A program made the translations under genes and the position numbers. Shown piece by piece: positions 9,819-34,049 of a stretch of DNA of 38,173 bases. The DNA is taken from the NCBI GenBank assembly GCA_022821735.1, contig JAJECZ010000372.1, positions 1 to 38,173 on the forward strand. Direction: 5' to 3'. The notes beneath the pieces are model-generated. The model was not told the origin of the DNA, searched no databases, and saw only the letters and a program-made list of their open reading frames with translations. The DNA is from Alphaproteobacteria bacterium. GTDB lineage: Bacteria; Pseudomonadota; Alphaproteobacteria; Bin95. Numbering within the stretch: the first letter of the stretch is position 1; each line of letters starts with the position of its first letter.

Positions 9819-9863
9819 TGTCGTCTCCCAAGGATGAGGAAAAAGGATGGATGGCGCGGGCTC

Positions 9864-15884: not shown

Positions 15885-15959
15885 GGGCCCGTAGCTCAAT
15901 GGCAGAGCGACGGTCTTTTAAGCCGCAGGTTCCGAGTTCGAGTCCCGGCGGGCCCTCCA
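15885..15959 (+). tRNA. tRNA-Lys (anticodon UUU) with encoded CCA.
   Basis: Hand-folded cloverleaf. The acceptor GGGCCCG/CGGGCCC is perfect and the D arm is GCTC-AATGGCA-GAGC. The anticodon loop is CTTTTAA and the T loop is TTCGAGT. There are two A-C mismatches, A27-C43 and A52-C62. Confidence 0.75.
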
Positions 15960-16899
15960 CATCCAGACGACGACTTCAGCACGGAAATCCGGACCCTAGT
16001 CCCAGACGTGGAGGTCGTCTCCGGATCTGGTCGGGGGTAGGCTGTCCTGGCGGGCGACCGGGCGCCAGTGTTCAAGGAGGGATGCGTCGCCAGGACGGCA
16101 GGGATCAGGTCCGGCGCGGAGCATATCCTTCGCGCGCCCGGCAAATCCGCATTTTGTCATGTTATGCCAATACCGAGAAATTTACTGTGATTTTACAGTA
16201 GGTTAATCATTTCGGGGTCAAGTCCGTCTTCATAGCGCAAGCGGATTCAATCCAATTACCGGCGCTGCTTGTCGCTATCGGTTACGTCAACCTGTGACAC
16301 CCAAGGTGGTCGACCGTCGCGGGCCGTCGCACAAAATCGTCGACCGACAGCTTGTGTCGGCATGAGGTGGTCTCGGCGCGACAGAGCACATCGTGTCATC
16401 CTTGCGGGGCCTATACTCCGTAAGAAAGCTGGACGGCTGCTCGGCACCTTGACCGCGAGCACACCGCAATCTGCGCTCATCTAGACGACACCGTCCTTTG
16501 CGACGTTGCCTCGCAGACGCCGGACGTCATCCGCTACCGATGAACTCGGCGGCTGCGCCGCCGCTGCCGCCGGAGGAGGCTAGCGAGACGGAGGCACCAA
16601 CCGGATCACCCAAGCTCCTGAGCCCTTGACCGCCGGCTCCACCAGAAGAGCCGTAGGAATCCCCCTTGCTCAGGTCACGAGACAATGCGGTGGGCAAGAC
16701 ACAGCCAACGTCCGAAGGAAGATTCCCTCTTACGGCCCAGTCGTGGAAATCGCCTGATCCCGCCGCGACAGATGCGATGCACCTGGACACCCTGACGGAC
16801 GAATCCACGCTCAAGCGGAGGGGTCTTCTCCCCCGCGACCCCAGGAGCACCGGGATCACCGTCGAGCACAGGACCATAGGAGCACCGGGAACACTACGA

Positions 16900-17234
16900 T
16901 CCCGTGGCAATCCCTTGATTTCCGGCCATTATTTCCGACTACGCATTCCAATTCATATCTTAGATTGACACTATATTTTTCCGACCCATGTATCAAATCG
17001 ATCTAATATAACCTCCGGCTGGAAAACCTATTTAGTATTAAGTCCTTGATTTACTGTATTTTTCCATTATGTTTTCCAGCAACGGACATTTGCAGCGGAT
17101 GTGTCGGTTCCAAACGGCCTATTCCGGTGCTCGGCACGGAGCGGAGCGAAGCACGTGCGGGCAAGATTGTTCCGCAGGGCCGGGCGTCCACACCCCGGCC
17201 CGATCTTTCGGCCAAACGCCAAGAGGAGCAAGAC
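16900..17234 (+). promoter_or_regulatory. AT-rich upstream region and leader of the nine-gene cluster.
   Basis: This is the most AT-rich stretch in the window. TTGACA lies at 16965-16970. CCTTGATTT occurs as a direct repeat at 16913-16921 and 17044-17052. A GC hairpin GGGCCGGG/CCCGGCCC lies at 17177-17184 and 17194-17201. The Shine-Dalgarno sequence AAGAGGAG is at 17221-17228. Confidence 0.4.
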
Positions 17235-17816
17235 ATGGCGACGGAAAGCAAGAAACGCCTCAGCAAGATCGCCCGCCAGAAGCTGCGCATGCGCGATACG
17301 CTGTGGCCCGAACTTGACGAGGCGCGATTGTGGTCGCGCGAGCGGTCGGACGGCTGGCTCAGCATGCCACGGCCGATGCCGCTGCTCATGAAGGTCATGG
17401 ACAGCCTGTCCAAGGGTAAGCCGGTTTCCTCGACCTATCTCGACCTCTGGTGCCGGACTTACGACGACTCCTTCGTTATCGCCAACAAGGACCGCGAGAT
17501 GGCGTACTTCTCAGGGTTCAGCGGCGAGCGGGCCGTACGCACTTGGACAATGCGCATGCGAACCCTCAATGACCTCGGCTTTATCGATATCAAGAGCGGT
17601 CCGAACGGGCCGATCAGCTACGTCCTGATTTTCAACCCCTACCTCGTCGTGCGCCAACTCTATGAAGCCGGCCAAATCAACGAAACTTTCTTCAACTCCC
17701 TCGCCCAGCGGATGATCGAGATCGGCGCTCACGACCTCAGCGACGCGCCTGACGAGGAAGAGGCGAAACCCCCATCCGTCCGACGCCGTCGCCGCGCCGG
17801 AAAGGCAACAGCATGA
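17235..17816 (+). CDS. Hypothetical protein, possible winged-helix DNA-binding protein (cluster gene A).
   Basis: The ATG at 17235 has a strong Shine-Dalgarno sequence, in frame within track ORF 17046-17816. The segment GERAVRTWTMRMRTLNDLGFIDIKSGPNGPISYVLIFNPY resembles a helix-turn-helix plus beta-wing. The tail is basic (RRRRRAGKA). Confidence 0.75.
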   Translation: MATESKKRLSKIARQKLRMRDTLWPELDEARLWSRERSDGWLSMPRPMPLLMKVMDSLSKGKPVSSTYLDLWCRTYDDSFVIANKDREMAYFSGFSGERAVRTWTMRMRTLNDLGFIDIKSGPNGPISYVLIFNPYLVVRQLYEAGQINETFFNSLAQRMIEIGAHDLSDAPDEEEAKPPSVRRRRRAGKATA

Positions 17817-18079
17817 GCACAGAAAACAAGGAATCGAGCGCCGAAACGGATGACGACAATCCGGCCGACGCGACCAATGGTGGAGAACCTGCCGCGCCGC
17901 AGACCAACTTTGACCGGCTGATCGCGCATCTGCCCGAGGACAGCCTCGCCGCGAAACTCGTGACCGCCTACGCGGCGTCAGGCGAGGCAGCACCCGCCGA
18001 TGCCATCGCAGAGGTCGCCGCAAACCGTCTCGATGAACTGAAGCAGAGCCATGACAACACTGAAGATCAACAAGATTGA
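17813..18079 (+). CDS. Very acidic small protein (cluster gene B).
   Basis: 88 aa with about 20 Asp/Glu versus 5 Lys/Arg. It has an ATGA overlap with gene A and a 29-nt overlap with gene C. Confidence 0.55.
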   Translation: MSTENKESSAETDDDNPADATNGGEPAAPQTNFDRLIAHLPEDSLAAKLVTAYAASGEAAPADAIAEVAANRLDELKQSHDNTEDQQD

Positions 18080-20576
18080 GGTGCAGGGCTTCCGGGCTTT
18101 CGGCCGGAAGGCACAGACGCTGTCCTTCGGCTCGTCACTGGCCGCCATCTGGGCACCGAACAGCCAGGGCAAGACCAGCCTTGCCGAGGCGTTCGAGTTC
18201 CTGCTGACCGGACAGATCGTCCGTCGCCAGCTCTTGGCCAGCACCCAGGACGAATTCGCTGACGCCCTGCGCAACGCCCATATGCCAGCCGCCATACCCA
18301 CATACGTCGAGGCGGAGATCACCGGCATTGACGGCCGGACGCACAACTTCAGGCGGACACTGATCTCGGACTACGCCAAGCGGAAAGACTGCCAGTCAGC
18401 CCTGCAGATCGACGGCGTGGAGGCTAATGAAAGCGATCTCGCCACCCTCGGTATCGTGCTCTCGCAACCGCCCCTCGCGGCGCCGGTCCTCGCTCAGCAC
18501 ACGCTCGGTTATCTCTTTTCCGCCCGGCCGCAGGACCGCGCCACGTATTTCAAGAGGATCCTTGAAGTCACGGATCTGGAAGAACTGCGAGGCGCGGTGG
18601 CGGGGCTCGACGCCGGGTTCAAGCCCGATGACGGCGACCGCCACTTAAGCCGGCTTGCTGCTGCCGCAGCCATCGAGAACGCGGAGCCACTTCTAGCACC
18701 CCTCGGTTCGGCTGTGCCGGCGCCTGCCGTTCTCGCCGCCGCGGTCGATGGGGCGATCACAGCCGTCCTGACCGCGGCCGAGCACCCATTGCCGGCAGTG
18801 CCCGCCGAGCGTCTGGTTGCGCTCGAAGGCTTGTTGCTGGAGCGACGGGCCAAGACATTCCCGGTTGACGGGTTCGCCAGGAGAGCGCTCGTCAACTGGA
18901 CCGAACCTGCCCAAGGAGAATGGGACACGCTCGATGTCTACCTAGCCGAGCGCGAAACGGTGGAGGAGGAGACGCGCCGTCTGATCGCGCTGTTCAGGGA
19001 GGCCTTGGCCATCCCCGCTGTCAATGCCGCGACGCAGCCCATCGACTGCCCACTGTGTGGTACGGAAGGCAGCCTGACGCCGGAGCGCATCGCCTTTATC
19101 CGCACCCGGGCGCATGAGACCGACGACTTCCAGACCGCTGAGGCGGCAGCGATTGACACCCTGCGCGCCCTGGCCGTATCCGCCCGTGGGTTCGATCGGG
19201 CGGCCGCTTCCGCCTGCCCTCGCTTCCTCACCATCAACTCAAGCGAGCGCCGGCAGGAAGGTTTCCGCGTGGAGCGCATCCGAACGTTGCTGGAACCGGA
19301 TGCCTCGGCCGTCATCGATGCTTGGCTGAAGGCGCTACGCAACCTCGCCCGCGCGCGGGCGACCATTGACGCCACCGCCAGCGCTCTCGCGGCGGAAGTC
19401 GAGGGCTACGCGGAGAAACCGGACACTCTGCGCGATCCGCAACCCTTGAGGACTGGCTTTGGGAACGTCGCAACTGCTTACTCCAATTTCGCGATCCAGC
19501 TGGAGCTCTACGCCGATGCGGAAACAGCCCTCCTGGAAAGGCTTACGGTCGTCATCGACGCCGCCAGCGACACCAGCGGCTGGCAGGAGCTCATCGATCT
19601 CGCCGGCGATCAGGGCGCGCTTCGCGCGAGCCTGATCGAGCGCCAGGCCCGGGCTGACATGCATGGGGAGCTGAATTCGGCGCTGCGCCAGATCGACAAA
19701 GGCAACGAGAAGGTTCTGGAGGACAAATTTGCGAATCTGAGCGGCAGCATCCAACACTGGTGGGACCTGCTCCGCCCCGACGAACCAACATTCTTCTCCG
19801 CAGTCAAACCCCGCAAAGGCGCACGGCGCACCGTCGACTTCAAGGCCGGCCTGTCCCTTGACGCCGACCGAACTGCTCCGAAGTTGCGCGACGTCATCGC
19901 CGTATTCAGCCAGTCGCAGCTTCACTGCCTGGGCCTCGCACTGTTCATCGCCCGCGCACTGCACGAGGGTGCCGGCTTCATGGTGCTGGACGATCCGATC
20001 TTGGCGAGCGATGAAGATTACCGGGCCTATTTCAAAACTGACGTCTTGGAGGAACTGACCGGCGCCGGAATCCAGACAATCGTCCTCACCCAGGACCAGA
20101 AGACATGGAAGGACCTGGAGCATCGATATCTGCACAAGAACATCGACATGTTCCAGTTGGCCCTTACCGACCGGGCCGACGGCACAGCGGTCACCAATAC
20201 AGGCGATGACCTCATGGCGATGCTTGCCCGTGCCGACGTGCTAGCACGGGGCGATCACATCGAGCTTCGCAAGCAGGCGGGTGAATTGCTGCGCAATGCC
20301 GCCGAGCGTTTCTGCAAGGAAATGCTGGTCAGGGACCGGTGGGCCAAGGGCGACAGCGCCGCCGCGCTTAGCGACCATGATGGCAAGAATCTCGGGCAAC
20401 TCGAACCCAAGGTGGAGCCGCTGCTCACGGCCGACCCGTCGCATCCCGGAAAGCTTCGCTCGGTCGGGAGCCAGCTCAACCCCGCCAAGCACGACGATGA
20501 CACGCCGGACCGGGGCACCATCAAGGTCGCCCTCGGCGACTTGAAGTTTCTCAAGAAGCAGTACCTGCCCACATAG
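18051..20576 (+). CDS. SMC/Rad50/DndD-like ABC ATPase with a long helical insert and a CxxC hook (cluster gene C).
   Basis: 841 aa. The N-terminus is KIEVQGFRAFG with Walker A APNSQGKTS at 18150-18179. A mid-protein CPLCG lies at 19047-19058. The signature-like motif is FSQSQLHCLGLALFIA, Walker B is FMVLDDPILASD, and a ~190-aa C-terminal extension follows. Confidence 0.88.
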   Translation: MTTLKINKIEVQGFRAFGRKAQTLSFGSSLAAIWAPNSQGKTSLAEAFEFLLTGQIVRRQLLASTQDEFADALRNAHMPAAIPTYVEAEITGIDGRTHNFRRTLISDYAKRKDCQSALQIDGVEANESDLATLGIVLSQPPLAAPVLAQHTLGYLFSARPQDRATYFKRILEVTDLEELRGAVAGLDAGFKPDDGDRHLSRLAAAAAIENAEPLLAPLGSAVPAPAVLAAAVDGAITAVLTAAEHPLPAVPAERLVALEGLLLERRAKTFPVDGFARRALVNWTEPAQGEWDTLDVYLAERETVEEETRRLIALFREALAIPAVNAATQPIDCPLCGTEGSLTPERIAFIRTRAHETDDFQTAEAAAIDTLRALAVSARGFDRAAASACPRFLTINSSERRQEGFRVERIRTLLEPDASAVIDAWLKALRNLARARATIDATASALAAEVEGYAEKPDTLRDPQPLRTGFGNVATAYSNFAIQLELYADAETALLERLTVVIDAASDTSGWQELIDLAGDQGALRASLIERQARADMHGELNSALRQIDKGNEKVLEDKFANLSGSIQHWWDLLRPDEPTFFSAVKPRKGARRTVDFKAGLSLDADRTAPKLRDVIAVFSQSQLHCLGLALFIARALHEGAGFMVLDDPILASDEDYRAYFKTDVLEELTGAGIQTIVLTQDQKTWKDLEHRYLHKNIDMFQLALTDRADGTAVTNTGDDLMAMLARADVLARGDHIELRKQAGELLRNAAERFCKEMLVRDRWAKGDSAAALSDHDGKNLGQLEPKVEPLLTADPSHPGKLRSVGSQLNPAKHDDDTPDRGTIKVALGDLKFLKKQYLPT

Positions 20577-20859
20577 ACGTTTCCCGTCGACTTCCGCCTT
20601 CCGGCAAATGTCCTCTGCGATCTGCCGGTGCTTCTTGTCCGCCGTCAACCCGTCCGGCACTCTCCCGAGGACGTAATCCTCACACCCCGACCCCGCCCAC
20701 CATCACCAGCATGCCCTGCAGCGGTTCCAGCCCAACCCAATCCGCAGTCCCCAGCGGGGTATCGCCGCATTCACCCTATCCGATGGCACGGCAGCTACAT
20801 CGTGCAAGACACTTCCCAGCCCTGTATATGGACTATGGTCCGAATTCGGAGATTGATTG

Positions 20860-21876
20860 ATGGTCGCTGTAAAGCTTGTCGACATCAACCGCATTGTCCT
20901 CGATACCGAGAATCCCCGCATTAAGCATTTCATGGAGATGTACGACGAAGTCACAGACGTCGCCATGAAGCTGGCCCTGGGTGCCGGCGGCGATTCGGAC
21001 GACGAGGCGACCGCCCAAGACAAATATCGCCAGCTCAAACGTGCGATCAAGGAAACCGGCGGCGTCGTTCAGCCCATCATACTGAAAGACGACAACGACG
21101 GAACGTATCTTTGTATCGAAGGCAACACCCGAGTCGCCATCTACCGCGAGCTTGGCGAAGAATCTGCGCCAGGTGACTGGAACCAGATTCTGGCAATTGT
21201 CCATGACGAACTCACAGAACAGCAGGCCCACGAGATTCGCCTTCAAGTCCATCTTGTTGGCCCCCGCTCCTGGACACCCTACGCCAAGGGAAAATACCTT
21301 TACGAGCTCTGGCACCAGGACAAGATGCCCATGACAGAAATCCTCAGGGTCTGCGGCGGAACCGAAAAAGCCGTACAGACAGAAATAGCTGCGTTCGAAG
21401 ACATGGAGTCCTATTACCGACCAGTCGCCGAAGCAGACGGCTCTGAAATGTTCGATTACTCCCGGTTCAGTGCCTTTCGGGAACTGCAGCGAGTCAAGAA
21501 CAGCATCTACGAAGCGGGGAAATCTGAACAGGACTTCGCGGAGTGGGTTCACAAGGGGTTGCTTCGTCCCCAAGAAAGAGTTCGCGACCTACCACAGATT
21601 CTGAAGGATACGGAAGCAACACGGATTCTCCTCAAATCGGGCGCAAAAGAGGCCGTGCGATACCTCATATTGAAGGAGAGCGAGAGCGAATCGGTTACGT
21701 CGTTGCGCGATGCATCGATCGTCGAACTGGCTGCGGCACTTCGCCGGCGAGTCGAACGCCTGTCCTTCGACGAGTCCGTGCAAATCGCTACCTCGCCAGT
21801 ATCCCCCGAAATGCTAGAGCTCGATGCCTTGCGGCGAAGCATCGACACCCTGGCGGAAACGGCAGAGGAGGAATAG
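20860..21876 (+). CDS. ParB/Srx-fold N-terminal domain protein with HTH (cluster gene D, ParB-like 1).
   Basis: ENPRI lies at 20908-20922 and IEGNTRVAIY at 21115-21144 (EGNTR at 21118-21132). An HTH-like segment MTEILRVCGGTEKAVQTEIAAF lies downstream. The ATG at 20860 follows GGAG. Confidence 0.82.
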   Translation: MVAVKLVDINRIVLDTENPRIKHFMEMYDEVTDVAMKLALGAGGDSDDEATAQDKYRQLKRAIKETGGVVQPIILKDDNDGTYLCIEGNTRVAIYRELGEESAPGDWNQILAIVHDELTEQQAHEIRLQVHLVGPRSWTPYAKGKYLYELWHQDKMPMTEILRVCGGTEKAVQTEIAAFEDMESYYRPVAEADGSEMFDYSRFSAFRELQRVKNSIYEAGKSEQDFAEWVHKGLLRPQERVRDLPQILKDTEATRILLKSGAKEAVRYLILKESESESVTSLRDASIVELAAALRRRVERLSFDESVQIATSPVSPEMLELDALRRSIDTLAETAEEE

Positions 21877-21882
21877 CCACCT

Positions 21883-22308
21883 GTGGCGGAAGGCCCGGTT
21901 CACAGAGCGCTCGTGCATCGGTTGGAGATGGCCGTTTCCGCCGCTCTAGGCCCGACGGCGCAGGGCATCGTCGACCGCGATGGCGGATATCGAGATCCCA
22001 CGTGGATGATCGGCGGCGCGTTTCCGGACGTCCGCGCTTTCGGGCGGGGGTTCGAGATCATCGGCGAAGCCAAACCTCCAAACGACCTGGAAACCCCCAG
22101 GTCTCAGCGACAGATCGCGAAATTCGTGAGATATGTTGAGCAGCTAACCAACGCCCACCTCGTCTTGTCGGTTCAATGGCACAGCACGCCGACTGCATGG
22201 AACCTGTTGCGACGCTCTGCGAGTGACTGGCGCGTCGTGCGAAGCAAGGTCCATGTCCTCAACGGCCTCTCCGACTTGTCCCTCCGGACACACGCCGGTC
22301 ACGCATGA
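21883..22308 (+). CDS. Small putative PD-(D/E)xK nuclease-fold protein (cluster gene E).
   Basis: 141 aa with a GTG start 6 nt after gene D. The motif is FPDV (D at 22027-22029) then EIIGEAK (K at 22072-22074). It has an ATGA overlap with the SNF2 gene. Confidence 0.6.
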   Translation: MAEGPVHRALVHRLEMAVSAALGPTAQGIVDRDGGYRDPTWMIGGAFPDVRAFGRGFEIIGEAKPPNDLETPRSQRQIAKFVRYVEQLTNAHLVLSVQWHSTPTAWNLLRRSASDWRVVRSKVHVLNGLSDLSLRTHAGHA

Positions 22309-23762
22309 AGACTCGGTTCACTCCCCGTCTCGAGGCCAAGCACCGCCCGCTGTCCCACCAGATGGAAGCCTTGCACGTAGTGCGTGACCTAGAATTCGCT
22401 GCACTTTTTCACGAGCAGGGCCTCGGCAAGACCAAAATCGGTCTGGACCTCATTCTTTACTGGCTGGCGACGTCGGTCGCCGATTCCGTGGTCGTCGTGA
22501 CAAAAAAGCTCCTGGTACCCAACTGGGTCCGCGAAACAGACGCCCACACTCACCTGCGGCCCGTCGTGCTCGGCCAAAACAAGCGAGCGAACTACTGGGC
22601 CTTCAATACCCCCGCCCGGCTCTATCTAGCTCACTATGAAGTTATGCACACCGAGCGCACGCGGCTCTCCATGTTCGCCGACTCGCGGCGCCTGGCGGTA
22701 ATTCTCGACGAGGCGCAGCGCATTAAGAACCCCAACACCGCCCCTGCGAAGGCACTGCATTCCTTGGCTCACAAGCTTGTGCGCCGTGTCATCATGACGG
22801 GCACACCGGTCGCGAACCGGCCCTACGATATCTGGTCACAGGTCTACTTCCTCGACCAGGGACGAGCGCTCGGCACTTCGTTTTCTGCGTTCCAGAACAA
22901 TGCCGACCTAACACGCTCGGTCGCCGAACAACCTGAGTCGGCGCGTGCCTTCGAAAACAAGATCGCCGATGTCCCTGCCAAAATTCGGTCCTTCTCTGTG
23001 CGCGAGACCAAAGACAGCGCCGAACTCACGCTGCCGGAGAAAACCGTCAGGGACACTCCCGCCGGGATGGAGGAGGCGCAGAGGGCGCTTTACCAGCGCT
23101 ACAAGAGCCAGTTGCGGGCCGAGGTGCAACGGGACGGCGTCAAGACGCTCGACGATGCCGACCGTGTCCTCAAACGCCTCCTTCGCCTTGTCCAGGTCGC
23201 GTCCAACCCAGGACTGGTCGACGAGACCTATGGACATGAACCCGGCAAGCTAACGGTGTTAGACCGAATCCTTAGCAAGCACGAACCGGACCAGGCGAAG
23301 AAGATTGTCTGGACGGCATTCACGGACAATGTCGAATTGATCGCCCGCCGGTATCCGGAGCGCCGGCCTGCCCGCATCCACGGCCGCCGCACGATAGCCG
23401 ACCGCAATTCCGACATAGTTCGCTTCCTTGAGGAAGACAACTGCACCCTGCTCGTCGCCACACCGGGCTCGGCCAAGGAAGGTCTGACCCTCACCGTCTC
23501 GGACCATGCCATTTTCTTCGACCGATCCTTCAGTCTGGATGACTATCTGCAAGCTCAGGACCGCATTCACCGGATCTCCCAAACCCGTGAATGCGTGATC
23601 GAGAACCTGATCGCAACCGACACTGTGGACGAGTGGGTCAGCGCCCTACTGTCGGCGAAGGAGCTGGCAGCTGCCCTTGCACAGGGTGACCTCAGCCTTC
23701 CCGAGTACCGCGACCACGCCACTTACGACTTCGCGCGGACACTCGACGCGGTGCTCGCATGA
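22305..23762 (+). CDS. SNF2-family helicase/translocase, core only (cluster gene F).
   Basis: 485 aa. Motif I GLGKT lies at 22419-22433 and motif II DEAQ at 22707-22718. Motif III is MTGTPVANR and motif VI is QAQDRIHRISQ. Confidence 0.92.
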   Translation: MKTRFTPRLEAKHRPLSHQMEALHVVRDLEFAALFHEQGLGKTKIGLDLILYWLATSVADSVVVVTKKLLVPNWVRETDAHTHLRPVVLGQNKRANYWAFNTPARLYLAHYEVMHTERTRLSMFADSRRLAVILDEAQRIKNPNTAPAKALHSLAHKLVRRVIMTGTPVANRPYDIWSQVYFLDQGRALGTSFSAFQNNADLTRSVAEQPESARAFENKIADVPAKIRSFSVRETKDSAELTLPEKTVRDTPAGMEEAQRALYQRYKSQLRAEVQRDGVKTLDDADRVLKRLLRLVQVASNPGLVDETYGHEPGKLTVLDRILSKHEPDQAKKIVWTAFTDNVELIARRYPERRPARIHGRRTIADRNSDIVRFLEEDNCTLLVATPGSAKEGLTLTVSDHAIFFDRSFSLDDYLQAQDRIHRISQTRECVIENLIATDTVDEWVSALLSAKELAAALAQGDLSLPEYRDHATYDFARTLDAVLA

Positions 23763-23798
23763 ACGTCTGCTGCAACCACATTTTCAGGGGCTCATTGG

Positions 23799-24854
23799 AT
23801 GACTGAATACTATCGTATCGGTAAGTCGCAGATCCCGTACAGGCTCGAGGCCATTCCCATCGAGAGTGTAGCTTTCTACGCTGAGAATCCTCGAATCTAC
23901 TCCCAATTTTCTGCGACGGAGGAGCGCACCCAAGAGGCAATCCAAAAAAAGCTCGAAGCGATGGAACATGTGAAGACACTTCGTGCGCAAATTCATCGCG
24001 ATCAACAGGTCAATGAACCACTGTGGTGCATGCCGGTAGACCAAGACTCTCCATTGAGCGCCAGTTACGACTTCATAACGCTCGAAGGAAACAGTCGCCT
24101 CGCAGCGTTGAGAATGGAAACCAGAACACCCCCTCCTGTGACGACCGTGCCGTGCAACATTCTTGATCTCTCCTCCCTGACGGCCGTTCAACGCGAATCA
24201 TTCATCTTCAGTCTTCTCGGCCGCATTCACATCACGGGCAAGACCAACTGGCAAACCTACGAGAATGCTGCATACATCTACCGGAGATACAGATATCAGG
24301 GAGTATCCGCAGAAGATCTGGCCAAGGAATTGGTCGGCCTGACGCCCGCTAAAGTAAGCAATACCGTCAAGGCCTACGAACTGATGTCACAAAATGAGGA
24401 CACGAAGCCCGACCATTGGAGCTACTATGACGTCCTCGTCTCCGGTCGAAAGTGGCCCAAGCTTCGCGACACCTATCCTTCTCTTGATGCCATTCTGCTT
24501 CCCATGATTCGCAATGAGGAATTTCAGAGGGCGCAAGACATGCGCGACAAGATTCCCGTGATCATGCACAACAAACAGGCTCGCAGGCGGTTTCTGGAGG
24601 GCGACAGCGAGGAGCGTTTCGTTCATGCGCTGGAGATCGCTGAATTTGGCGGTGGAAGTAACACGGTACTTCGAAGGCTCGAGGCCTTTCAGCGTTTCCT
24701 GACGCAGGATGAGAACGAAGACGCCATCAAACAGCTCCTGGACGCTCAAGGAACGAAGGGCAAGGCGAAGTTCGCTCTCGACAAGATCTATGACGTGATG
24801 GCGCGTCTATCGCCTAAGGCTCAGAGACTCGCCGAACGCCGAAAGGGGCGCTGA
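23799..24854 (+). CDS. ParB/Srx-fold N-terminal domain protein with HTH (cluster gene G, ParB-like 2).
   Basis: ENPRI lies at 23883-23897 and LEGNSRLAAL at 24081-24110 (EGNSR at 24084-24098). The HTH-like segment is VSAEDLAKELVGLTPAKVSNTVKAY. It is a paralog of gene D. Confidence 0.82.
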   Translation: MTEYYRIGKSQIPYRLEAIPIESVAFYAENPRIYSQFSATEERTQEAIQKKLEAMEHVKTLRAQIHRDQQVNEPLWCMPVDQDSPLSASYDFITLEGNSRLAALRMETRTPPPVTTVPCNILDLSSLTAVQRESFIFSLLGRIHITGKTNWQTYENAAYIYRRYRYQGVSAEDLAKELVGLTPAKVSNTVKAYELMSQNEDTKPDHWSYYDVLVSGRKWPKLRDTYPSLDAILLPMIRNEEFQRAQDMRDKIPVIMHNKQARRRFLEGDSEERFVHALEIAEFGGGSNTVLRRLEAFQRFLTQDENEDAIKQLLDAQGTKGKAKFALDKIYDVMARLSPKAQRLAERRKGR

Positions 24855-24857
24855 GCG

Positions 24858-26543
24858 ATGAACATGCCCAAGAACGTCCTCTTGATCGAGCCCGGGTATC
24901 CGAATAAGTACCCGCCGCTTGGGCTTATGAAGATCGCCGCATATCACGGCGTTCGCGGACGCGGCGACAATGTCGTCTTCATCAAGGGTCCCGAACCCGC
25001 AGTCCTGGCGCAGCACTGGGACCGTGTATACGTGACCACGCTGTTCAGCTTCGAATGGAAGACGACAGCCAGAGCGATCGACTTTGCGATTGAGGCGGCC
25101 GCATACCAGTCGGAAAGGGTCTTCGTCGGCGGGATTGCTGCATCGCTGATGCACGACTCCTTCGTTTCCGAGCCCCGATGGGCGGGGGTACGATTCATCA
25201 AGGGACTTCTCGATGTATCGCCTGCGAGCGCGCTTAAGCTCTCCGCGGCCGATGGAGACTTCGGCGCCGACGATCTCCATGGCACACCAATCGAGGAGCT
25301 CGTACCCGATTACAGCATTCTCGACCAGATTGCCGACAGCTACACATATCCCGTCAACGATGCGTATTTCGGATACGCATCGCGAGGTTGCGTGCGCAAG
25401 TGCGCATTCTGCGGCGTACCCAAGCTCGAAGGCCGGCAGCGTGAGATGCCACCGCTCGCCCAGCTTGTCCGAGGTGTCTCGGACCATTATGGCGAGAAAA
25501 AGGATCTTGTCCTAATGGACAACAACATCACCGCGTCTTCCCGCTTCAAGGAGATCATGGCCGAAATCCGTGATTTGGGATTCACGCCAAACGCAACTTT
25601 GCTTCGGCCTAATGGGAGATCTGTCCGGCGGCGCGTCGATTTCAACCAGGGCGTCGATGCGCGCATTCTGGCCAAGTCCCCGATGTTTCTCAGGGAAATG
25701 TCCACGATTTGCATCAGCCCATTGCGGATCGCTTTCGATCATCTGGGCGTGCGCAAGGTGTATGAGGCCTCGGTCCGCATGGCAGCGGACAATGATATTC
25801 GATCCTTGTCGAACTACATGCTGTACAATTTCATGGACGATCCTGCGGATTTGTATCAGCGCATGCGGCTCAACATTGATCTCAATGAAGAGCTGGGGCT
25901 ACGGATATGGTCCTTTCCCATGCGATATCAGCCGGTCACCCTGAAAGAACGCACCCATGTGGGAAAGCGTTGGAACCGGTATTATCTGCGATCATTCCAG
26001 ATCATGCTCCAAGCGACCAGAGGAGTGGTTAGCGGCGCTCCAGACTTCTTCTCCAGGGCCTATGGTAATTCGCCCGAGGATTTCCAGCGGCTTCTGCGTC
26101 TGCCCCACGCCTTCATTTTCCATCGGGACTATTACGAGAATCCTGCCCGCGACGGCCGCGCCGTCATGGACGAGTATCTGGCGGCCCGGTCGAAGCTCTC
26201 TGTGAGCCAGGAACATGAGCTGGTAAGCCTGCTGGCCGGACCTCCCGAACAAAAGACGGTATCTCTTGTCCGATTCCGCAAGCTCGTATCGGACAGCACC
26301 GTGGACCGCCCGATCCGGGAACTTCTGCGATACCACTCTCTGGGAACCCAACACCCCCCCGGCGCCAACGCGAGAGTGGTCGAGCCTCTTTTCGACCGGC
26401 TCAATCCCGACCCGGTCCTGCCCGATGACGAGAGGGTGGAGGATGCCGGGCTCTTCGGACCAGGCGATCTGGACGGCGGACGAGTCGCGCCGCTCGGTGC
26501 GCGCTCCGGGCATCGCGCCTGGCGAGCCGCGGAGACCGGTTAG
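24858..26543 (+). CDS. Radical SAM enzyme with an N-terminal B12-binding-like (Rossmann) domain (cluster gene H).
   Basis: 561 aa. The CX3CX2C motif GCVRKCAFCG lies at 25389-25412. The N-terminus LLIEPGYPNKYPPLGLMKIAAYH...VFVGGIAAS is typical of radical SAM proteins with a B12-binding domain. The long C-terminal region is unassigned. Confidence 0.88.
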   Translation: MNMPKNVLLIEPGYPNKYPPLGLMKIAAYHGVRGRGDNVVFIKGPEPAVLAQHWDRVYVTTLFSFEWKTTARAIDFAIEAAAYQSERVFVGGIAASLMHDSFVSEPRWAGVRFIKGLLDVSPASALKLSAADGDFGADDLHGTPIEELVPDYSILDQIADSYTYPVNDAYFGYASRGCVRKCAFCGVPKLEGRQREMPPLAQLVRGVSDHYGEKKDLVLMDNNITASSRFKEIMAEIRDLGFTPNATLLRPNGRSVRRRVDFNQGVDARILAKSPMFLREMSTICISPLRIAFDHLGVRKVYEASVRMAADNDIRSLSNYMLYNFMDDPADLYQRMRLNIDLNEELGLRIWSFPMRYQPVTLKERTHVGKRWNRYYLRSFQIMLQATRGVVSGAPDFFSRAYGNSPEDFQRLLRLPHAFIFHRDYYENPARDGRAVMDEYLAARSKLSVSQEHELVSLLAGPPEQKTVSLVRFRKLVSDSTVDRPIRELLRYHSLGTQHPPGANARVVEPLFDRLNPDPVLPDDERVEDAGLFGPGDLDGGRVAPLGARSGHRAWRAAETG

Positions 26544-26565
26544 TCCATCTCGTTGAGGAAAGCCC

Positions 26566-28062
26566 ATGCCACTCGAAGAGCCACTGTCGACATTGGTCGG
26601 AGGGAACGTTCTGTCCTTGGTCACGGCGGGAATGTACGACGACCCTTTGGCGATCTACCGTGAATACATTCAGAACGCCGCTGATGCTGTCTCTCGTTCC
26701 AACCGATCGGGCCGCGTAGACATCACTATCGATCCCGTCGCGCGGCGCATTCGAATCCGCGACAACGGTCCGGGCCTTTCTCGAGCGGAAGCAACACGCT
26801 CCCTCGTAGTTGTTGCCGACAGTGACAAGACGCACGGTGTCGACAGGGGCTTCCGGGGCATCGGTCGATTGTCAGGCTTGGCCTGCGCCGAATTCGTGGT
26901 CTTCAGAACGCGATGCCGCTCTCGCAAGCGTATCACCCGCGTCGAGTGGGATGGCGTTGTAATGCGGACCAAGCTGCTCGACCGCGCAACCTTGGAGGAT
27001 ACGATCCGTAGTTGCGTTTCCGTCTCCTCTGAAGATGCAGGCGATTATCCCGAACATTTCTTCGAGGTTGAAATCCTTGGTGTCAGCCGACACGTCTCCG
27101 GCAGACTGCTGAACAGCGATGCCGTCAAGGACTATGTCTCCGAGGTGTGTCCGGTTCCGATATCGGACGATTTCCCCTTGGCTGACGAGGTGACCGGTTA
27201 CCTTCACGGCCATATCCTGGGTCCCCCGCTCGACATTCACGTCAACGGTGCTGAGGAAGCTCTTCGGCGCCTGCGCCATCCGGCAATCGCATTCTCGGAC
27301 GTCCATCATGAGGCCTTTGCCGAATTGGAGACATTCCAAGTCCCGGACGCCGAAGGTCGGGGGCTATCCGCTATTGGTTGGCTCGCTCATTCAGCCTACC
27401 TCGGCGCGATCCCGAAGAACCTTCGCCTCCGGGGAATCCGGGCTAGGTGCGGCAATATTCAGGTCGGCAGCGACACCGTGTTCGACCACTTGTTCCGAGA
27501 GGAACGCTTCAATCGCTGGTGCGTGGGCGAAGTCCACGTAATCGACCCGCGCATTCTCCCCAACGGGCACCGAACCTATTTCGAGAGCGGCCCGCGCATC
27601 CGAAATCTCGAAAATCACCTTTCCGCAATCGCGCACCAGGTTTCCAGTCGTTGTCGGCGCCATTCGTCCATTCGACATCGACAGCGACAAATGGCGTCGA
27701 AACTGGAGCGAGCAGAAAACGCCTTGGAAGCAGCAGTCAAGCTTATCGGTTCCGAACCCTCCGCAAGGGATTATGCTTGGCGGGTACTGGGCGCGGAGGC
27801 AGAAGCCCTCCGACGTCTACGCGCAGACACGCCGGTCTCGCAAATTGATTGCCCAGAAACACTAAACAGCCTTTCAACGCTGGAAGCGACCCTCTCGACG
27901 CGGACCAAGCAACTGAAACCGTCCTTCACACGACACATCGGCATTAGAAATCCCGGCGATGATCGTTGGAGAGTAGCCTTCGAACGTTTGGCCTCTGCTT
28001 GCGGCTCGCCTACGCTGGCTCTAACCGCTATTCAACACGCGTTTCTAGACACCGGCTGCTAG
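26566..28062 (+). CDS. GHKL (Bergerat-fold, MORC/Hsp90/MutL-like) ATPase (cluster gene I).
   Basis: 498 aa. Motif I is EYIQNAADA (Asn at 26674-26676), motif II is DNGPG at 26761-26775, and motif III is RGFRGIGRLSG. Confidence 0.86.
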   Translation: MPLEEPLSTLVGGNVLSLVTAGMYDDPLAIYREYIQNAADAVSRSNRSGRVDITIDPVARRIRIRDNGPGLSRAEATRSLVVVADSDKTHGVDRGFRGIGRLSGLACAEFVVFRTRCRSRKRITRVEWDGVVMRTKLLDRATLEDTIRSCVSVSSEDAGDYPEHFFEVEILGVSRHVSGRLLNSDAVKDYVSEVCPVPISDDFPLADEVTGYLHGHILGPPLDIHVNGAEEALRRLRHPAIAFSDVHHEAFAELETFQVPDAEGRGLSAIGWLAHSAYLGAIPKNLRLRGIRARCGNIQVGSDTVFDHLFREERFNRWCVGEVHVIDPRILPNGHRTYFESGPRIRNLENHLSAIAHQVSSRCRRHSSIRHRQRQMASKLERAENALEAAVKLIGSEPSARDYAWRVLGAEAEALRRLRADTPVSQIDCPETLNSLSTLEATLSTRTKQLKPSFTRHIGIRNPGDDRWRVAFERLASACGSPTLALTAIQHAFLDTGC

Positions 28063-28159
28063 CCGTCCCGATTACATGATTGTCCGTTATACACTTCCCT
28101 ACTATCGGAGTATCACAAAAGCATGATCATGCTCTTCTCCGTGTATCACTGCGACTGCA

Positions 28160-29455
28160 TTATGCAGCTTCTACCATTTCATCAAATTGCTGTCTGCCAA
28201 TTCCACCCTTATTTACCAGTACGGTTTGAATCACCCTCTCTGATGCATGAAAAAAGCGTGCCGCCGCCGATATATCCTCTTCAGAAGGCACCTCTGTATT
28301 GATGTAAGATAACAGGTCCTCGTAAGGACAAAGAAGACTTTGCGCAAATGCTCGCTGAAATTTCTGCCGACCTGTCTTCGTCCTCGTTATAGGTCCTAAT
28401 GGATCGTTACCCGACCATATTGCATCACCCAAAGTGCGACACAACTCAAATCGACGCCCTTGGGCCCAGCGGGAACTCAACGCTACAACATTTCTATTCC
28501 CGTCTCCTTCCCGTAGGCGAAGACCATAATGAAGTCCGCCCGGTTCAGCATCCCTGCTGCGAAAGTGATCTTTAGAGACATTTAGCAATTCTGCCAAACG
28601 CGTATTTCTCAATGGTCCGTTGTCGGCACCCAATCCCCTACGTACTGCTGTAGCTGCCTCCTCGGCAACTTCCCAAATTGGTTTAGTGTATCGCTGTTTA
28701 ATGTCCCCCGCTGCGGCAATTGCGTCATGCAGCTCGCAAACTACTTTTGACTTCTTTGCGACCTTTATCTCTTCTGCCAGCGTGTCAGCAGATGTTTCTC
28801 CCTGACTGGCCACAATTGCCTCCTCAACTCCCTCATTCCCATAGCTTTCCAAATAACCCAGCAGTAGTTGGACTAGTTCACTCGGCGCGCGGTCGATATC
28901 GTATCCCAACTTAGCCTCTATTCGGCGCCATGTAGCCGCATTATCATCTACGCGCTCTTCTTTCAACGCCAAGAATTGCGCGTTCAACGCTACCTTGTCG
29001 TCCGAAGCCGCATCCACAGCCTTACTCAAAAACCGATCAACTGATGCTTCAAACTGATCTGCGCCTACAAAAACAAGAGCATCCTTAGTAAATCTCAGGG
29101 CAAAATTCATGCTGAGCGGATCACTACGGCAGGCGAGCCCGACTCGAGGGTCTTCACCCCAAATGCGAAGTCTTGGCCAAATGTAACCTCCGCCAATCGC
29201 CGAAAGCTCGTGGGCCAGACGCCAAGTCGGATCGACGTTGTCGGATACTATTGGTTCCCAACGTAGGCGCCACCAGTTATCCGTGATCCAAAACGCCAAT
29301 TGAACGGGCGGCGCTTGAAGATAGTCGTCAGCTTGATTTCCTCCATCTCGAACAAGTTCAGTGAAACAGACTTCACCTGATCGCAACGCTATATGCTGCG
29401 GCACTTCCCACGAGGACTCCGGTTCAGTCCGGATATCGAACTGGAAATCGGTCAT
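28160..29455 (-). CDS. Protein with a C-terminal ImmA/IrrE (COG2856)-like domain lacking the HEXXH motif.
   Basis: 431 aa. The C-terminal half fits the family template (AVRRGLGADNGPLRNTRLAELL...GRRFELCRTLGDAIW...QRAFAQSLLCPYEDLL), but CRTLGD sits where HELGH is expected. G+C is very low (26/60 at 28201-28260). Confidence 0.72.
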   Translation of the reverse strand: MTDFQFDIRTEPESSWEVPQHIALRSGEVCFTELVRDGGNQADDYLQAPPVQLAFWITDNWWRLRWEPIVSDNVDPTWRLAHELSAIGGGYIWPRLRIWGEDPRVGLACRSDPLSMNFALRFTKDALVFVGADQFEASVDRFLSKAVDAASDDKVALNAQFLALKEERVDDNAATWRRIEAKLGYDIDRAPSELVQLLLGYLESYGNEGVEEAIVASQGETSADTLAEEIKVAKKSKVVCELHDAIAAAGDIKQRYTKPIWEVAEEAATAVRRGLGADNGPLRNTRLAELLNVSKDHFRSRDAEPGGLHYGLRLREGDGNRNVVALSSRWAQGRRFELCRTLGDAIWSGNDPLGPITRTKTGRQKFQRAFAQSLLCPYEDLLSYINTEVPSEEDISAAARFFHASERVIQTVLVNKGGIGRQQFDEMVEAA

Positions 29456-29958
29456 CGCCGGAAACCGTAAAGCGTTTTACATTGTTGAACTGCTTGATGT
29501 GCTAGTTGGTTTCCGTGTACTTGGACCCAATCTCTGAATCGCCTGTATACCAGCACCGCTATCGGCTCGGTGCGTCGCACGGGGTAGCCATGATACTCTG
29601 TCTGTACAATGTTTGTAATCCTCCCCTCGTAAATCCAGCCGTTGTTTGCAACGGCCCAGATGATGCCATTTTCGCCGACTAGGCCAGCCTGTAAACCCCG
29701 GTGAATCATTGGGCGAATTAGAGGGATGTGAGCGGGTTGAAAATTGGCATCCCGGTCGCAGAGGGTGGCATCTCCTCTAGTACCCAAGAAAGGTTCGAGG
29801 CCATAGAGGTGGGGATTTTGCTTATGCTTAGAATATGGTTGGTAGATTATGTTTTGTTGCAATTGCGCGATGTAGGCCGGAGGAGGATTGGCCAACAGTC
29901 GGCGCTTCTCGTTGTTTGAGTGCCGAGCAGGTAGGTTGGATCTCGTTGCCGGTCGCAT
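29452..29958 (-). CDS. Hypothetical protein, family unassigned.
   Basis: 168 aa with an ATGA overlap onto the downstream gene. A conserved-looking core reads GIIWAVANNGWIYEGRITNIVQTEYHGYPV. G+C is low. Confidence 0.65.
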   Translation of the reverse strand: MRPATRSNLPARHSNNEKRRLLANPPPAYIAQLQQNIIYQPYSKHKQNPHLYGLEPFLGTRGDATLCDRDANFQPAHIPLIRPMIHRGLQAGLVGENGIIWAVANNGWIYEGRITNIVQTEYHGYPVRRTEPIAVLVYRRFRDWVQVHGNQLAHQAVQQCKTLYGFRR

Positions 29959-30320
29959 CCTCTACACTCTCCTCGGCACCAGATTCGCCGCCCCTGTTTC
30001 CACATCGCAGTCTCAGTGCGGGGATTTCACAGCTTGGCTCTAGTCGTAGGTGCTGGTCTGGGAATCACATCGAGCAGGGTCCCAAGTCTTCTTACCACAT
30101 ATGCAGCCGCAGTTGGGTAGTGTATCTGCCTGTTCTGTCACGCGCGCGGGGGCCGGGTGCGCTCGGGGAGCCTAAGTTGGCCTTCTGCTGGCATTCCCTG
30201 TACCGCGTGGACAGGCCGGTGAAGGCTCCCGTCATCGTGTCGCAAGCGGGCGAATTCAACATCGCGACCGTCATTGTCCGGCCCTGTCCTGTTTCCATCT
30301 TCCGCAGCGGACTATGAAGC

Positions 30321-30596
30321 TCAGCCGCCGACGGCATTCCTGAGCGACCTGCCCGGCTTGAAGACGGGCACGGTCGAAGCCGCCACAGGCACATTTTCTC
30401 CCGTGCGGGGGTTGCGGGCGATGCGCGCCGGTCGCGCCCTGGTTCCGAAGCTGCCGAATCCGAGGCTTCGCACGTCCTCGCCATTTGCCAGGGCTTCGCC
30501 GATCACCTCGAACACGCCCTCCACCGCATCCTTCGCAGCCGCTTTCGTCATTCCCGTCCGGTCCGCGAGGCGCTCACCCAGTTCCGACTTGTTCAT
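30321..30596 (-). CDS. hup: HU/IHF-family nucleoid-associated DNA-binding protein.
   Basis: 91 aa from the ATG at 30596 within track ORF 30321-31025: MNKSELGERLADRTGMTKAAAKDAVEGVFEVIGEALANGEDVRSLGFGSFGTRARPARIARNPRTGENVPVAASTVPVFKPGRSLRNAV. Confidence 0.92.
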   Translation of the reverse strand: MNKSELGERLADRTGMTKAAAKDAVEGVFEVIGEALANGEDVRSLGFGSFGTRARPARIARNPRTGENVPVAASTVPVFKPGRSLRNAVGG

Positions 30597-30763
30597 CCCT
30601 GCACTCCCATGCTTGTCATCACCGGCCCGCTGTCCGCCTGAGTAGTATGTTGGGCCATTCTGCGCGATATGCCTCGCCTTGGGGTCGTCGCGCTTCCGCG
30701 CCATGAGCGGCACGTCCGGGAACGGCGTGTTACGGTCGCGGCGGCGTGTTGTCGGGGGGTGCG

Positions 30764-31189
30764 ATGCTGGACGACAGGGAACTCCTAGAGAAGCTTGCCA
30801 AGGTGGAAGCCCTGTTCCGGCGGGCCGCCAGTCCGGGGGAGCAGGCTGCTGCAGGAGCTGCGATGGACCGGCTGCGCGACCGGCTCGGCGCCTCCGACCG
30901 GGATGGCGGTCCGGAAACCGAACTCCAGTTCTCGCTGCCGGACGCCTGGTCGGTCCGGCTGTTCGTCGCCGTCTGCCGCAAACACGGCCTGCGCCCGTTC
31001 CGCTATGCGCGGCAACGGCGGACAACGGTGATGGTGCGCGCCCGCGAGCGACATTTCGATCGTGTGGTGTGGGCCGAGTTCAGCCACCTTCAAACCGAGC
31101 TCGAACTCTACTTCGAGGACGTTACCGACCATCTGATTACCCGCGCCATGGGCTCGGACGGCGACGACAGCAACATCGGGCAGCGGTAG
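30764..31189 (+). CDS. Hypothetical protein; the N-terminal helical segment is reminiscent of DUF2786-type proteins.
   Basis: The ATG at 30764 lies within track ORF 30746-31189 (LLEKLAKVEALFRRAASPGEQAAAGAAMDRLRDRL...). It is divergent from the HU gene. Confidence 0.6.
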   Translation: MLDDRELLEKLAKVEALFRRAASPGEQAAAGAAMDRLRDRLGASDRDGGPETELQFSLPDAWSVRLFVAVCRKHGLRPFRYARQRRTTVMVRARERHFDRVVWAEFSHLQTELELYFEDVTDHLITRAMGSDGDDSNIGQR

Positions 31190-31203
31190 CTGGCGAAGCT
31201 GGC

Positions 31204-31461
31204 CTACGCGGCTTCCACGATCACGCGGCCGCGTCCCCGGCGAACGATGTAACCGCCCCGGCGGATCGAGAGCTTGCCGTCCTGGACCAGGCCCCACAAC
31301 ACATCCGAGATCGTCCCGGCATTCTCGTCGACCTCCGGCGCCTCGGCCGCCTGGTCGAGCCATTTTGCGAACGCTTCGTCGGCAATCGCGGGGCCCACGG
31401 ATTTCCGGAGCGCATTGAGTTTCCGGAGCTGGCCTTTCTTCAGGCTGGATTCATCGATCAT
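31204..31461 (-). CDS. Hypothetical small protein.
   Basis: The ATG at 31461 lies within track ORF 31204-31491 (MIDESSLKKGQLRKLNALRKSVGPAIADEAFAKWLDQ...). Codon bias is good. Confidence 0.55.
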   Translation of the reverse strand: MIDESSLKKGQLRKLNALRKSVGPAIADEAFAKWLDQAAEAPEVDENAGTISDVLWGLVQDGKLSIRRGGYIVRRGRGRVIVEAA

Positions 31462-32131
31462 GTCGAACTCTCCCGTTCCGGATTCCAACATGGGCAGCAG
31501 TTAAACCGCGATTCGCTCCAGGATGTAACATCCGCGTCCCCTGCCGCAGAAATTAAGTTGCGGCACTGCCAATCGCCGCCGAACCGAGCCAGGCATTACA
31601 GCCCGACAACCGCGCCAGCATAGCCGAGAGGCTACGGCAACTCTGCGGTGCCGCGAGGTCGCGGTCTGGCTCGGCGGGCGCGTGCTTGGCTGGATATTGA
31701 CCCGCGAGCGCGGCCGTCCCGCAGACGCCATATGGCTCATCGGCAGCCTGCCGGTCGTGCCGGGCCGTTCGTATCGGGGGGCGTGCGCGGAGCCGCCGCG
31801 CCCGCTTGCCGACGCCGAACGCCGCATTACCGAACTCGCCTATGTCCACCTTGTCGAACCCGGCGCCGGAGACGGGGCGAGGCGAATGCCGTCACCTACA
31901 CCCCGTCACAAACAACGCGAGGCAAGAATCACAGTCCTCGGCGCGCGAGCGGAACCGTGCCGGGTTCGCCGTTCTCGCCCGCCCGTCAATGGGCGCCGCG
32001 GCAGCGCCTGTACGTCCGGCCCGAACCGCAAGGGCAGGGCTCGTTGGATGTTGCCCGGCGCGGCCCTTGGACGCCGATCAGCGCCATAAGCGATTGATTG
32101 CATTCGATTATGAAGGGTCAGAGCCCGGTGC

Positions 32132-33946: not shown

Positions 33947-34049
33947 GCAAGGCTGCGTATAACAGGACAATAACGCAACGGAGGACCGTATGAACGAGCG
34001 GGACGCGCCGTAGTCGGCGTCTGCGGGGGAGGAAACCCGGATCGGCGAG

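Follow-up and report, generated by a model that had tools for sequence, protein, structure and literature searches.

Two genes in an alphaproteobacterial contig (JAJECZ010000372.1, 38,173 nucleotides; this whole stretch of DNA is referred to as the window) encode ParB-like proteins, here called D and G, and the question raised by this locus is which of the neighbouring genes each of them belongs to. An earlier note, made from the sequence alone, had proposed that each of the two heads a three-gene sub-module of its own, D together with a small nuclease-like protein (E) and an SNF2 helicase (F), and G together with a radical S-adenosylmethionine (SAM) enzyme (H) and a GHKL ATPase (I). Our comparison of related loci shows instead that the evolutionary and transcriptional units are D-E-F-G (DEFG) and H-I (HI). 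We propose, with a probability of roughly 0.5, that D to I form a self-contained six-gene system, in which a restriction-like DEFG cassette would be combined with a radical SAM-based HI module that marks DNA. The six genes are closely packed on the plus strand:

20860 to 21876, plus strand: D, ParB/Noc-fold protein, D-type paralog, with an N-terminal domain, a helix-turn-helix (HTH) domain and a helical C-terminus
21883 to 22308, plus strand: E, 141 residues with a PD...EAK motif, putative minimal PD-(D/E)xK nuclease
22305 to 23762, plus strand: F, SNF2-family ATPase/translocase without a fused nuclease domain, its start overlapping E by 4 nucleotides
23799 to 24854, plus strand: G, ParB/KorB-fold protein, G-type paralog, its C-terminal ~80 residues unrelated to D
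24858 to 26543, plus strand: H, radical SAM enzyme, the most conserved gene of the system
26566 to 28062, plus strand: I, MORC-like GHKL ATPase with a helical C-terminal half

The intergenic spacers amount to 6 (D-E), -4 (E-F), 36 (F-G), 3 (G-H) and 22 nucleotides (H-I).

Two samples of related loci were used to define the units. The first comprised the best 80 genomic loci found through H (L001-L080), derived from metagenome-assembled genomes (MAGs) of many phyla, and the second, meant as an unbiased complement, comprised 80 metagenome contigs centred on D. In the latter, D-E-F-G was contiguous in all 47 contigs with enough flanking sequence, and G always came after F. H was visible in 46 D-centred contigs, where it was located downstream on the same strand (19), divergent (17), convergent (7) or upstream on the same strand (3), i.e. 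H-I lay on the opposite strand to DEFG, and was thus separately transcribed, in 24 of the 46. From this contiguity and from the orientations of H we conclude that G belongs to the cassette and that DEFG and HI are often separately transcribed. Three of the 23 D-centred contigs with full flanks, representing two distinct sequences, had no H-I within 10 kb, and these HI-less cassettes still carry G.

The same division emerged from co-inheritance. Pairwise protein distances were correlated (Spearman) over the 49 loci in which all six genes are present, which gave coefficients of 0.72-0.81 among D, E, F and G (0.88-0.91 inside the 32 DEFG-HI loci) and of 0.83 between H and I, as opposed to 0.23-0.52 between the two blocks. 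G itself correlated with D at 0.81, with H at 0.30 and with I at 0.41, and it tracked D, E and F rather than H or I even in the 32 loci in which it abuts H. A single shallow cluster of H goes with three deep subfamilies of DEFG, and the ratio of distances between and within subfamilies was 1.6-1.9 for D, E, F and G as against 1.1-1.2 for both H and I, although the overall divergence of I equals that of D. With a mean p-distance of 0.30, compared with 0.43-0.63 for the genes around it, H evolves at a rate two to three times lower. H was 64-74% identical across the 80 H-centred loci, and identity at this level across very different phyla points to strong constraint together with frequent horizontal transfer. 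Some of the MAG names in this sample suggest sponge symbionts (Poribacteria, Poriferihabitaceae, Spongiihabitans), and the MAGs appear to be mostly sponge-associated.

In the H-centred sample, I directly followed H in 79 of the 80 loci, and D, E, F and G were all present in 53. The gene order in these 53 loci was DEFG-HI (36), HI-DEFG (15), an arrangement with the cassette inverted (1, L031) or G-H-I with an inverted D-E-F (1, L050), and one further locus (L074) contained G-H-I only. The adjacency of G and H seen in the window is hence the commonest H-centred arrangement (36/53), yet it does not reflect a conserved linkage. Each F-bearing locus of this sample encoded exactly one D-type and one G-type protein, frameshifted copies aside, so that both paralogs, whose joint occurrence in homologous clusters had been raised in the earlier note, were found in every SNF2 locus (53/53 H-centred, 47/47 D-centred).

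These arrangements bear directly on the idea of two parallel sub-modules, in which D would target E-F for cutting and translocation and G would target H-I for modification or sensing. The window itself, where G ends 3 nucleotides before H, speaks for it, as do the median G-to-H spacing of -4 nucleotides (39 loci) and the position of G upstream of H-I although D-E-F is inverted (L050) or missing (L074). The differing C-terminal ~70-80 residues of D and G could moreover dock different partners, and on plasmids a small DGQHR/DpdB-like gene, encoding another ParB-superfamily member, is located directly 5' of H. However, two separate sub-modules are difficult to reconcile with the invariable position of G after F, with the divergent or convergent H-I genes, with DEFG contexts without H-I (two distinct ones), with the occurrence of H-I beside at least four other partner cassettes that lack G, and with the low correlation of G with H and I (0.30-0.41) compared with that among D, E, F and G; in addition, DGQHR proteins show no detectable family-level relation to G. 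We consider a split into D-E-F and G-H-I unlikely.

What D and G themselves are could be settled further. The two signature blocks reported in the earlier note, ENPRI and EGNTR/EGNSR, are present in the translations exactly where they had been placed, and we identified a third block common to both proteins, H-[LI]-x-G-x3-W-x2-Y-x4-Y-[LI]-Y:

20908 to 20922, plus strand: ENPRI motif of D (translation)
21118 to 21132, plus strand: EGNTR motif of D (translation)
21250 to 21303, plus strand: third shared block of D, HLVGPRSWTPYAKGKYLY (motif pattern)
23883 to 23897, plus strand: ENPRI motif of G (translation)
24084 to 24098, plus strand: EGNSR motif of G (translation)
24228 to 24281, plus strand: third shared block of G, HITGKTNWQTYENAAYIY (motif pattern)

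A BLASTP comparison of D with G gave 22% identity over 190 residues (E 2e-6), and the local alignment score of 87 clearly exceeded that of 300 shuffles (37 +/- 6; z = 8.3). A profile-profile comparison of the two families, built from 34 D and 33 G database homologs, returned a probability of 98.7% (E 2e-16) over 240 columns, and either family hidden Markov model (HMM) matched D and G alone among the open reading frames (ORFs) of the window. From these alignments we conclude that D and G are true, anciently duplicated paralogs, as had been proposed.

AlphaFold2 models of both proteins (pLDDT 85.9 for D, 86.3 for G) had ParB, Noc and KorB as top Foldseek matches in the PDB, with 217-277 aligned columns and best E-values of 8e-7 for D and 9.7e-5 for G. 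The matched chains span the N-terminal ParB domain and the HTH domain, which bears out both the ParB fold and the downstream HTH-like segment that had been read from the sequence; G also matches phage ParB/Spo0J-like proteins. At the level of library models the relationship is more distant, since D scored 20.0 bits against Pfam ParB_N (PF02195), under the gathering cut-off of 26.3 bits, and G had no match in Pfam or NCBIfam. A precomputed PF02195 match was found in many D homologs and in no G homolog.

The arginine of the EGNxR motif was said in the earlier note to sit where the arginine of ParB GxxR and of the DndB DGQHR motif is expected. The first half of this statement stands: in HMMER alignments with ParB/Noc (CIEGNTRVAI vs IIAGERRWRA; RLQVHLV vs ALVENLQ) the arginine aligns with the second arginine of GERR. 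As to the second half, [DE]-G-[NQ]-x-R in D and G resembles DGQHR as a pattern only; the PF14072, TIGR03187 and DpdB models gave no match to D or G at E <= 0.1, and hhalign assigned DGQHR proteins probabilities of 0.1-1.2% against the D and G families. Because two of the three GERRxR arginines, the glutamate and the ENLQR box are not retained, we regard the label of a "CTP clamp" for D and G as doubtful.

Both motifs are nevertheless retained throughout the two families. In a census of ~132 distinct D-type and ~105 distinct G-type sequences, [ED]GNTR occurred in 124/132 of the former and EGNSR in 98/105 of the latter, each with xNPR[IV], and threonine or serine in [ED]GN[TS]R separates the two types. 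Neither paralog is hence a decayed copy, and both are under selection for the same pocket. The homology stops at about residue 265-273, and the last 70-80 residues differ. A profile of the G C-terminus (residues 265-338, ~24590-24850) matched EF-hand pairs of calmodulin and myosin light chains (E 3e-6), while that of D gave no such match; canonical calcium-binding loops are missing, and the segment is an EF-hand-like helical pair at most rather than calmodulin-like. A protein that appeared to be a D-E fusion (P0417) was set aside, its garbled linker being probably a frameshift artefact.

The conserved motifs of the remaining four proteins are located as follows:

22024 to 22029, plus strand: PD motif of E (conserved)
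22066 to 22074, plus strand: EAK motif of E (conserved)
22419 to 22433, plus strand: Walker A motif GLGKT of F
22707 to 22718, plus strand: DEAQ motif of F
24912 to 24932, plus strand: PPLGLMK in the N-terminal Rossmann-like domain of H
25389 to 25412, plus strand: CxxxCxxC motif of H
26662 to 26688, plus strand: N-box EYIQNAADA of I
26761 to 26775, plus strand: G1 motif DNGPG of I
26848 to 26865, plus strand: G2 motif GFRGIG of I

The family of E comprises ~137 representative clusters, whose members stand alone and are nearly all well below 170 residues long. Residues H7, D33, P48, D49, E62 and Q77 are invariant, A63, K64 and D68 almost so, and the PD and EAK motifs are at least 90% conserved both in 55 and in 45 sequences. 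On the basis of the PD...ExK motif alone we assign E as a putative PD-(D/E)xK nuclease, which retains the motif part of the earlier claim, although a match in the model libraries or PDB profiles did not accompany it. F is an SNF2-family protein, as had been stated, with intact GLGKT and DEAQ motifs and scores of 95.1 bits against Pfam SNF2-rel_dom (cut-off 24.9) and 45.5 bits against Helicase_C. Among models of defence proteins, it matched only the helicase portions of ZorD (122 bits), DpdE (up to 99.6 bits) and DrmD (48 bits, cut-off 950 bits).

The description of the genes after G as a radical SAM enzyme and a GHKL ATPase agrees with the CxxxCxxC motif of H, the cysteines of which (C178, C182, C185) were invariant across 14 diverse homologs, and with the score of I against HATPase_c_3 (29.2 bits, cut-off 25) together with its N-box, G1 and G2 motifs. 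Models of B12-dependent radical SAM enzymes and of MiaB/RimO gave weak local matches to H around the cysteine motif only, a PDB profile search with H returned nothing useful, and no cobalamin riboswitch is present. Database relatives of H number more than 7,800, none of them with a name other than "radical SAM protein"; no record was obtained when the exact sequence of H from the window was looked up. The phage family phrog_9298, "radical SAM domain protein", matches residues 6-377 of H (E 1.2e-37). The phage proteins, of roughly 300 residues, are without the C-terminal extension of H and without a GHKL partner. Within this extension, which the phage relatives lack, residues 524-533 of H (~26427-26456) form an invariant acidic motif D-E-x-x-E-D-A-G-L-F, and this may be where I or proteins of the cassette dock.

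In annotated phages (L120-L123: vir335, NatCom_21982, phiCT453B and LoVEphage), the neighbours of phrog_9298 genes within the replication/modification module are a DNA methyltransferase with which they overlap, Dam and PAPS reductase, or a ParB-like gene. D/G-type neighbours were not present in the viral contigs examined. The family is a candidate phage DNA-modifying enzyme.

The partners of HI vary widely. Apart from DEFG, HI was found with a NurA-like protein, an unassigned 565-residue protein and a second GHKL ATPase (13 loci) or with a 770-residue DndB(DGQHR)-HEPN_Swt1 fusion (8 loci). On plasmids of cultured bacteria (Novosphingobium, Bradyrhizobium), where H is 56-59% identical, the layout is PIN-like protein, GHKL ATPase, small DGQHR/DpdB-like protein, radical SAM enzyme and GHKL ATPase; this HI array is followed on the opposite strand by a DGQHR-HEPN fusion in Novosphingobium pNL1 and by SNF2, an E-like protein and three D/G-like ParB proteins in Bradyrhizobium. 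The possibility that G is the ortholog of the small DGQHR/DpdB-like protein preceding H on these plasmids was rejected by hhalign. In a distant branch (H 39% identical), HI accompanies DISARM DrmA (E 3e-161), DrmB (E 1e-52) and a NERD-UvrD helicase, as in L087 (1014-11496), in which DrmA, DrmB and the helicase precede a 698-residue H-like radical SAM protein and a GHKL ATPase. Another branch with H at 39% identity retained the order D-F-G-H-I. Conversely, DEFG without HI abuts type II restriction-modification (R-M) operons or sits inside them on the same strand in two cases: one (L185/L194) reads PDC-S19, D12 methyltransferase, type II restriction endonuclease, DEFG and PIN, and the other (L188, 8288-14726, and L192) reads DpnM-like D12 methyltransferase, N6_N4 methyltransferase, D-E-F-G and DpnII restriction endonuclease, the start of the latter overlapping the end of G.

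A separate pair recurs near HI in loci of a Dehalococcoidia type, namely L005 (17472-20391), L007, L019, L022, L023, L026, L034, L042, L044 and L052. It consists of a GHKL ATPase of ~620-645 residues with weak MzaB and REase_II matches and a protein of ~330 residues with a weak match to the PP_RS20740 family, and it may represent another GHKL-based system. A further protein (c13) had been suspected to be HerA-like, which none of the libraries supports.

We suggest an architecture like that of R-M systems, because HI is a constant and slowly evolving core, its nuclease and motor partners are variable, and it takes the usual position of the methylase in DISARM-like loci. In Dnd, Dpd, DISARM and BREX, restriction modules that vary are tied to a modification module that is conserved and that often requires an ATPase, and ATPase partners of the DNA-modifying enzymes are established for Dnd and Dpd (DndD, DpdB). 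By analogy, H-I, the part that stays constant throughout a larger family of systems, would be an ATP-assisted DNA-marking module, and its mark would tell the cassette which DNA to spare or to attack. Within the cassette, D and G would act together as DNA-loading or NTP-switch subunits, possibly as a hetero-oligomer, and would serve E as the nuclease and F as the translocase instead of each serving a separate effector pair. An extended and more tentative version, which we hold to be possible but less likely than the general scheme, would make H the first radical SAM enzyme to write a self-identifying covalent mark on DNA, with I clamping or opening the DNA and a D+G heteromer reading the mark and licensing the SNF2/PD-(D/E)xK machine; HI would then be portable and would replace methyltransferases in DISARM-like and other cassettes.

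Several observations weigh against the proposed restriction-like system with a DNA-marking HI module. H scored 21.0 bits against Pfam Radical_SAM (PF04055), below the gathering cut-off of 29.5, and its N-terminal domain had no match to the Pfam B12-binding model at E <= 0.1. E had no match in Pfam, PADLOC, NCBIfam, PHROG or PDB profiles. Direct writing of a protective mark on DNA is not known for any radical SAM enzyme. L087 contains no methylase within 1014-11496, but one is possible upstream of DrmA, outside that stretch, and the HI-less DEFG cassettes beside complete R-M systems may reflect clustering in defence islands rather than a replacement of HI. In L050 and L074, G is located beside H-I without an adjacent F; a functional contact between G and HI is possible there, though not required. 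Finally, a constant core with variable nuclease cassettes suits sensor/effector systems equally well.

In such a sensor/effector arrangement, the GHKL ATPase would sense invader DNA, the radical SAM enzyme would damage nucleic acid or make a nucleotide-derived antiviral molecule or signal, and the cassettes would be interchangeable effectors, as in Lamassu and CBASS. Besides the pairing of an unchanging core with nuclease/helicase cassettes that vary greatly, which is typical of such systems, the strong conservation of H (p-distance as above) would be in line with an enzyme whose small substrate is universal, and viperin-type radical SAM antiviral enzymes and Ophion, a different radical SAM system (radical SAM enzyme, PHP, PRTase), provide precedents. 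H, however, matched neither the viperin nor the Ophion-type models in PADLOC, its phage relatives occur alone and beside methyltransferases, which suits a self-protective modification better, and HI occupies the position of the usual methylase in DISARM-like loci. We judge this alternative to be improbable.

The structural matches of D and G raise yet another alternative, namely a maintenance, partition or DNA-repair module of mobile elements built around ParB-like proteins, without a role in defence. Partition proteins and KorB are the best structural matches, and the system is found on conjugative plasmids, beside insertion sequence (IS) elements and beside tRNA genes. A ParA partner is missing, though, the GERRxR and ENLQR motifs of the CTP switch are not conserved, and the partners are nucleases, SNF2, DrmA/DrmB, HEPN, PIN and type II R-M genes; sponge-symbiont genomes carry the cluster among housekeeping genes and not on replicons that need partition. 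This makes a function outside defence very unlikely.

The proposed restriction-like system shares parts with several known systems. Dnd and Dpd are likewise multi-gene systems in which a protein of the ParB superfamily occurs together with a modification module assisted by an ATPase and with a restriction module of helicase and nuclease; DndB and DpdB are ParB-superfamily DGQHR proteins, and DpdE is an SNF2-like helicase. F matches DpdE models, and sister HI loci carry true DGQHR/DpdB-like proteins. D to I differ from both in the lack of DndA/C/D/E, of DpdA (tRNA-guanine transglycosylase, TGT) and of DpdC, in the ParB/Noc-type rather than DGQHR-type D and G, and in the presumptive modifier, which is a radical SAM enzyme with a GHKL ATPase. 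DISARM resembles the system in its SNF2 helicase (F being weakly DrmD-like), in the logic of modification plus helicase/nuclease and through the DrmA and DrmB genes of L087, whereas the window encodes no DrmA, DrmB or DrmC (none of its genes A to K matches) and no methyltransferase. For Zorya, the likeness is confined to the helicase half of ZorD: the fused nuclease of ZorD is here replaced by the separate E, and ZorA, ZorB and ZorC were not detected in the window. I resembles prokaryotic MORC/paraMORC proteins in R-M contexts, both being HATPase_c_3 GHKL ATPases in a restriction-like neighbourhood.

With ParB/Spo0J, Noc and KorB, D and G have in common the fold, the order of N-terminal domain and HTH and the aligned NPR and GxxR positions. 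They differ in the EGN[TS]R motif, which has a single arginine and asparagine for glutamate, in H-[LI]-x-G at the ENLQR region, in the lack of ParA and in forming an obligate paralogous pair that flanks a putative nuclease gene and an SNF2 gene. Weak matches (E 1e-3 to 1e-2) were further obtained for protein A of PD-lambda-5, restricted to the N-termini of D and G, and for phage phrog_498, restricted to the N-terminus of D. In both, a ParB-N domain is fused to a DNA methyltransferase and so coupled to a DNA-modifying activity, while D and G are separate proteins without a methyltransferase domain. PD-lambda-5 is described as a compact system combining R-M and abortive infection (PMC9519451).

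The statement of the earlier note that the cluster maps to no described system still applies: PADLOC v2.0.0, Pfam, NCBIfam and PHROG contain no model naming H, G, E or the whole system, no published description of it was found in the full-text literature, and neither was a report in which a radical SAM enzyme and a GHKL ATPase form an obligate pair. D to I look like a widespread, unnamed R-M-like defence system, and the chances that H-I uses a modification chemistry that is itself new are substantial. Homologs of the radical SAM/GHKL pair run into the thousands and are all labelled "radical SAM protein" or "hypothetical"; the nuclease/helicase cassettes with which the pair combines are of at least five kinds, DISARM DrmA/DrmB among them. 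If H modifies DNA, radical chemistry would join the epigenetic self-marks and a new family of R-M-like systems would be defined. The obligate D/G pair would be a new use of the ParB fold, with diverged paralogs carrying a DGQHR-like [DE]GN[TS]R motif in a restriction cassette, without ParA and without CTP-switch motifs. The question is open to direct testing in cultured hosts (such as Novosphingobium aromaticivorans pNL1, Bradyrhizobium and Rhizobium), H having the identity given above on plasmids of rhizobia and sphingomonads.

In the window, the system lies inside an island of lower G+C content (50-65%, ~16000-34000; window ~70%), which is bounded by two tRNA genes and contains further genes on both sides of D to I:

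15885 to 15959, plus strand: tRNA-Lys(UUU), one bound of the island
17232 to 17816, 17813 to 18079 and 18051 to 20576, plus strand: A, B and C, directly upstream of D
28160 to 29455 and 29452 to 29958, minus strand: J and K, an overlapping gene pair convergent with I
30321 to 31025, minus strand: 234-residue protein with a C-terminal HU domain, island cargo
32132 to 33058, minus strand: DUF6602 protein, island cargo
33167 to 33946, plus strand: 259-residue protein with a C-terminal cold-shock domain, island cargo
34537 to 34626, minus strand: tRNA-Ser(CGA), other bound of the island

The window contains no second copy of the tRNA-Lys 3' end, so that no att site was found, and no integrase was found in it either. 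The ORFs of D and G were both judged to be real. D starts at 20857 or 20860, the ATG at 20860 being 7 nucleotides past a GGAG, and is separated from C by 283 nucleotides. Upstream of D, no riboswitch or other Rfam RNA was found, and a promoter/terminator scan was uninformative, with fewer matches than in shuffled sequence.

The boundaries of the system were set by a 90%-identical relative, in which an IS element is followed by D to I without the A-B-C genes of the window. As parts of the system, A-B-C and J-K were rejected, being absent from this relative and from 80/80 related loci. No family could be assigned to A or to the acidic protein B, and C is an 841-residue SMC/RecF-type ABC ATPase, the N-terminus of which matches LmuB, PtuA and GajA models; since none of the related D-I loci has the trio, it is probably a candidate defence module in its own right. 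K had no match and J a weak one, to the IrrE/M78 peptidase. Among the island cargo, the DUF6602 protein matches the PD_DExK and NucC nuclease models of PADLOC.

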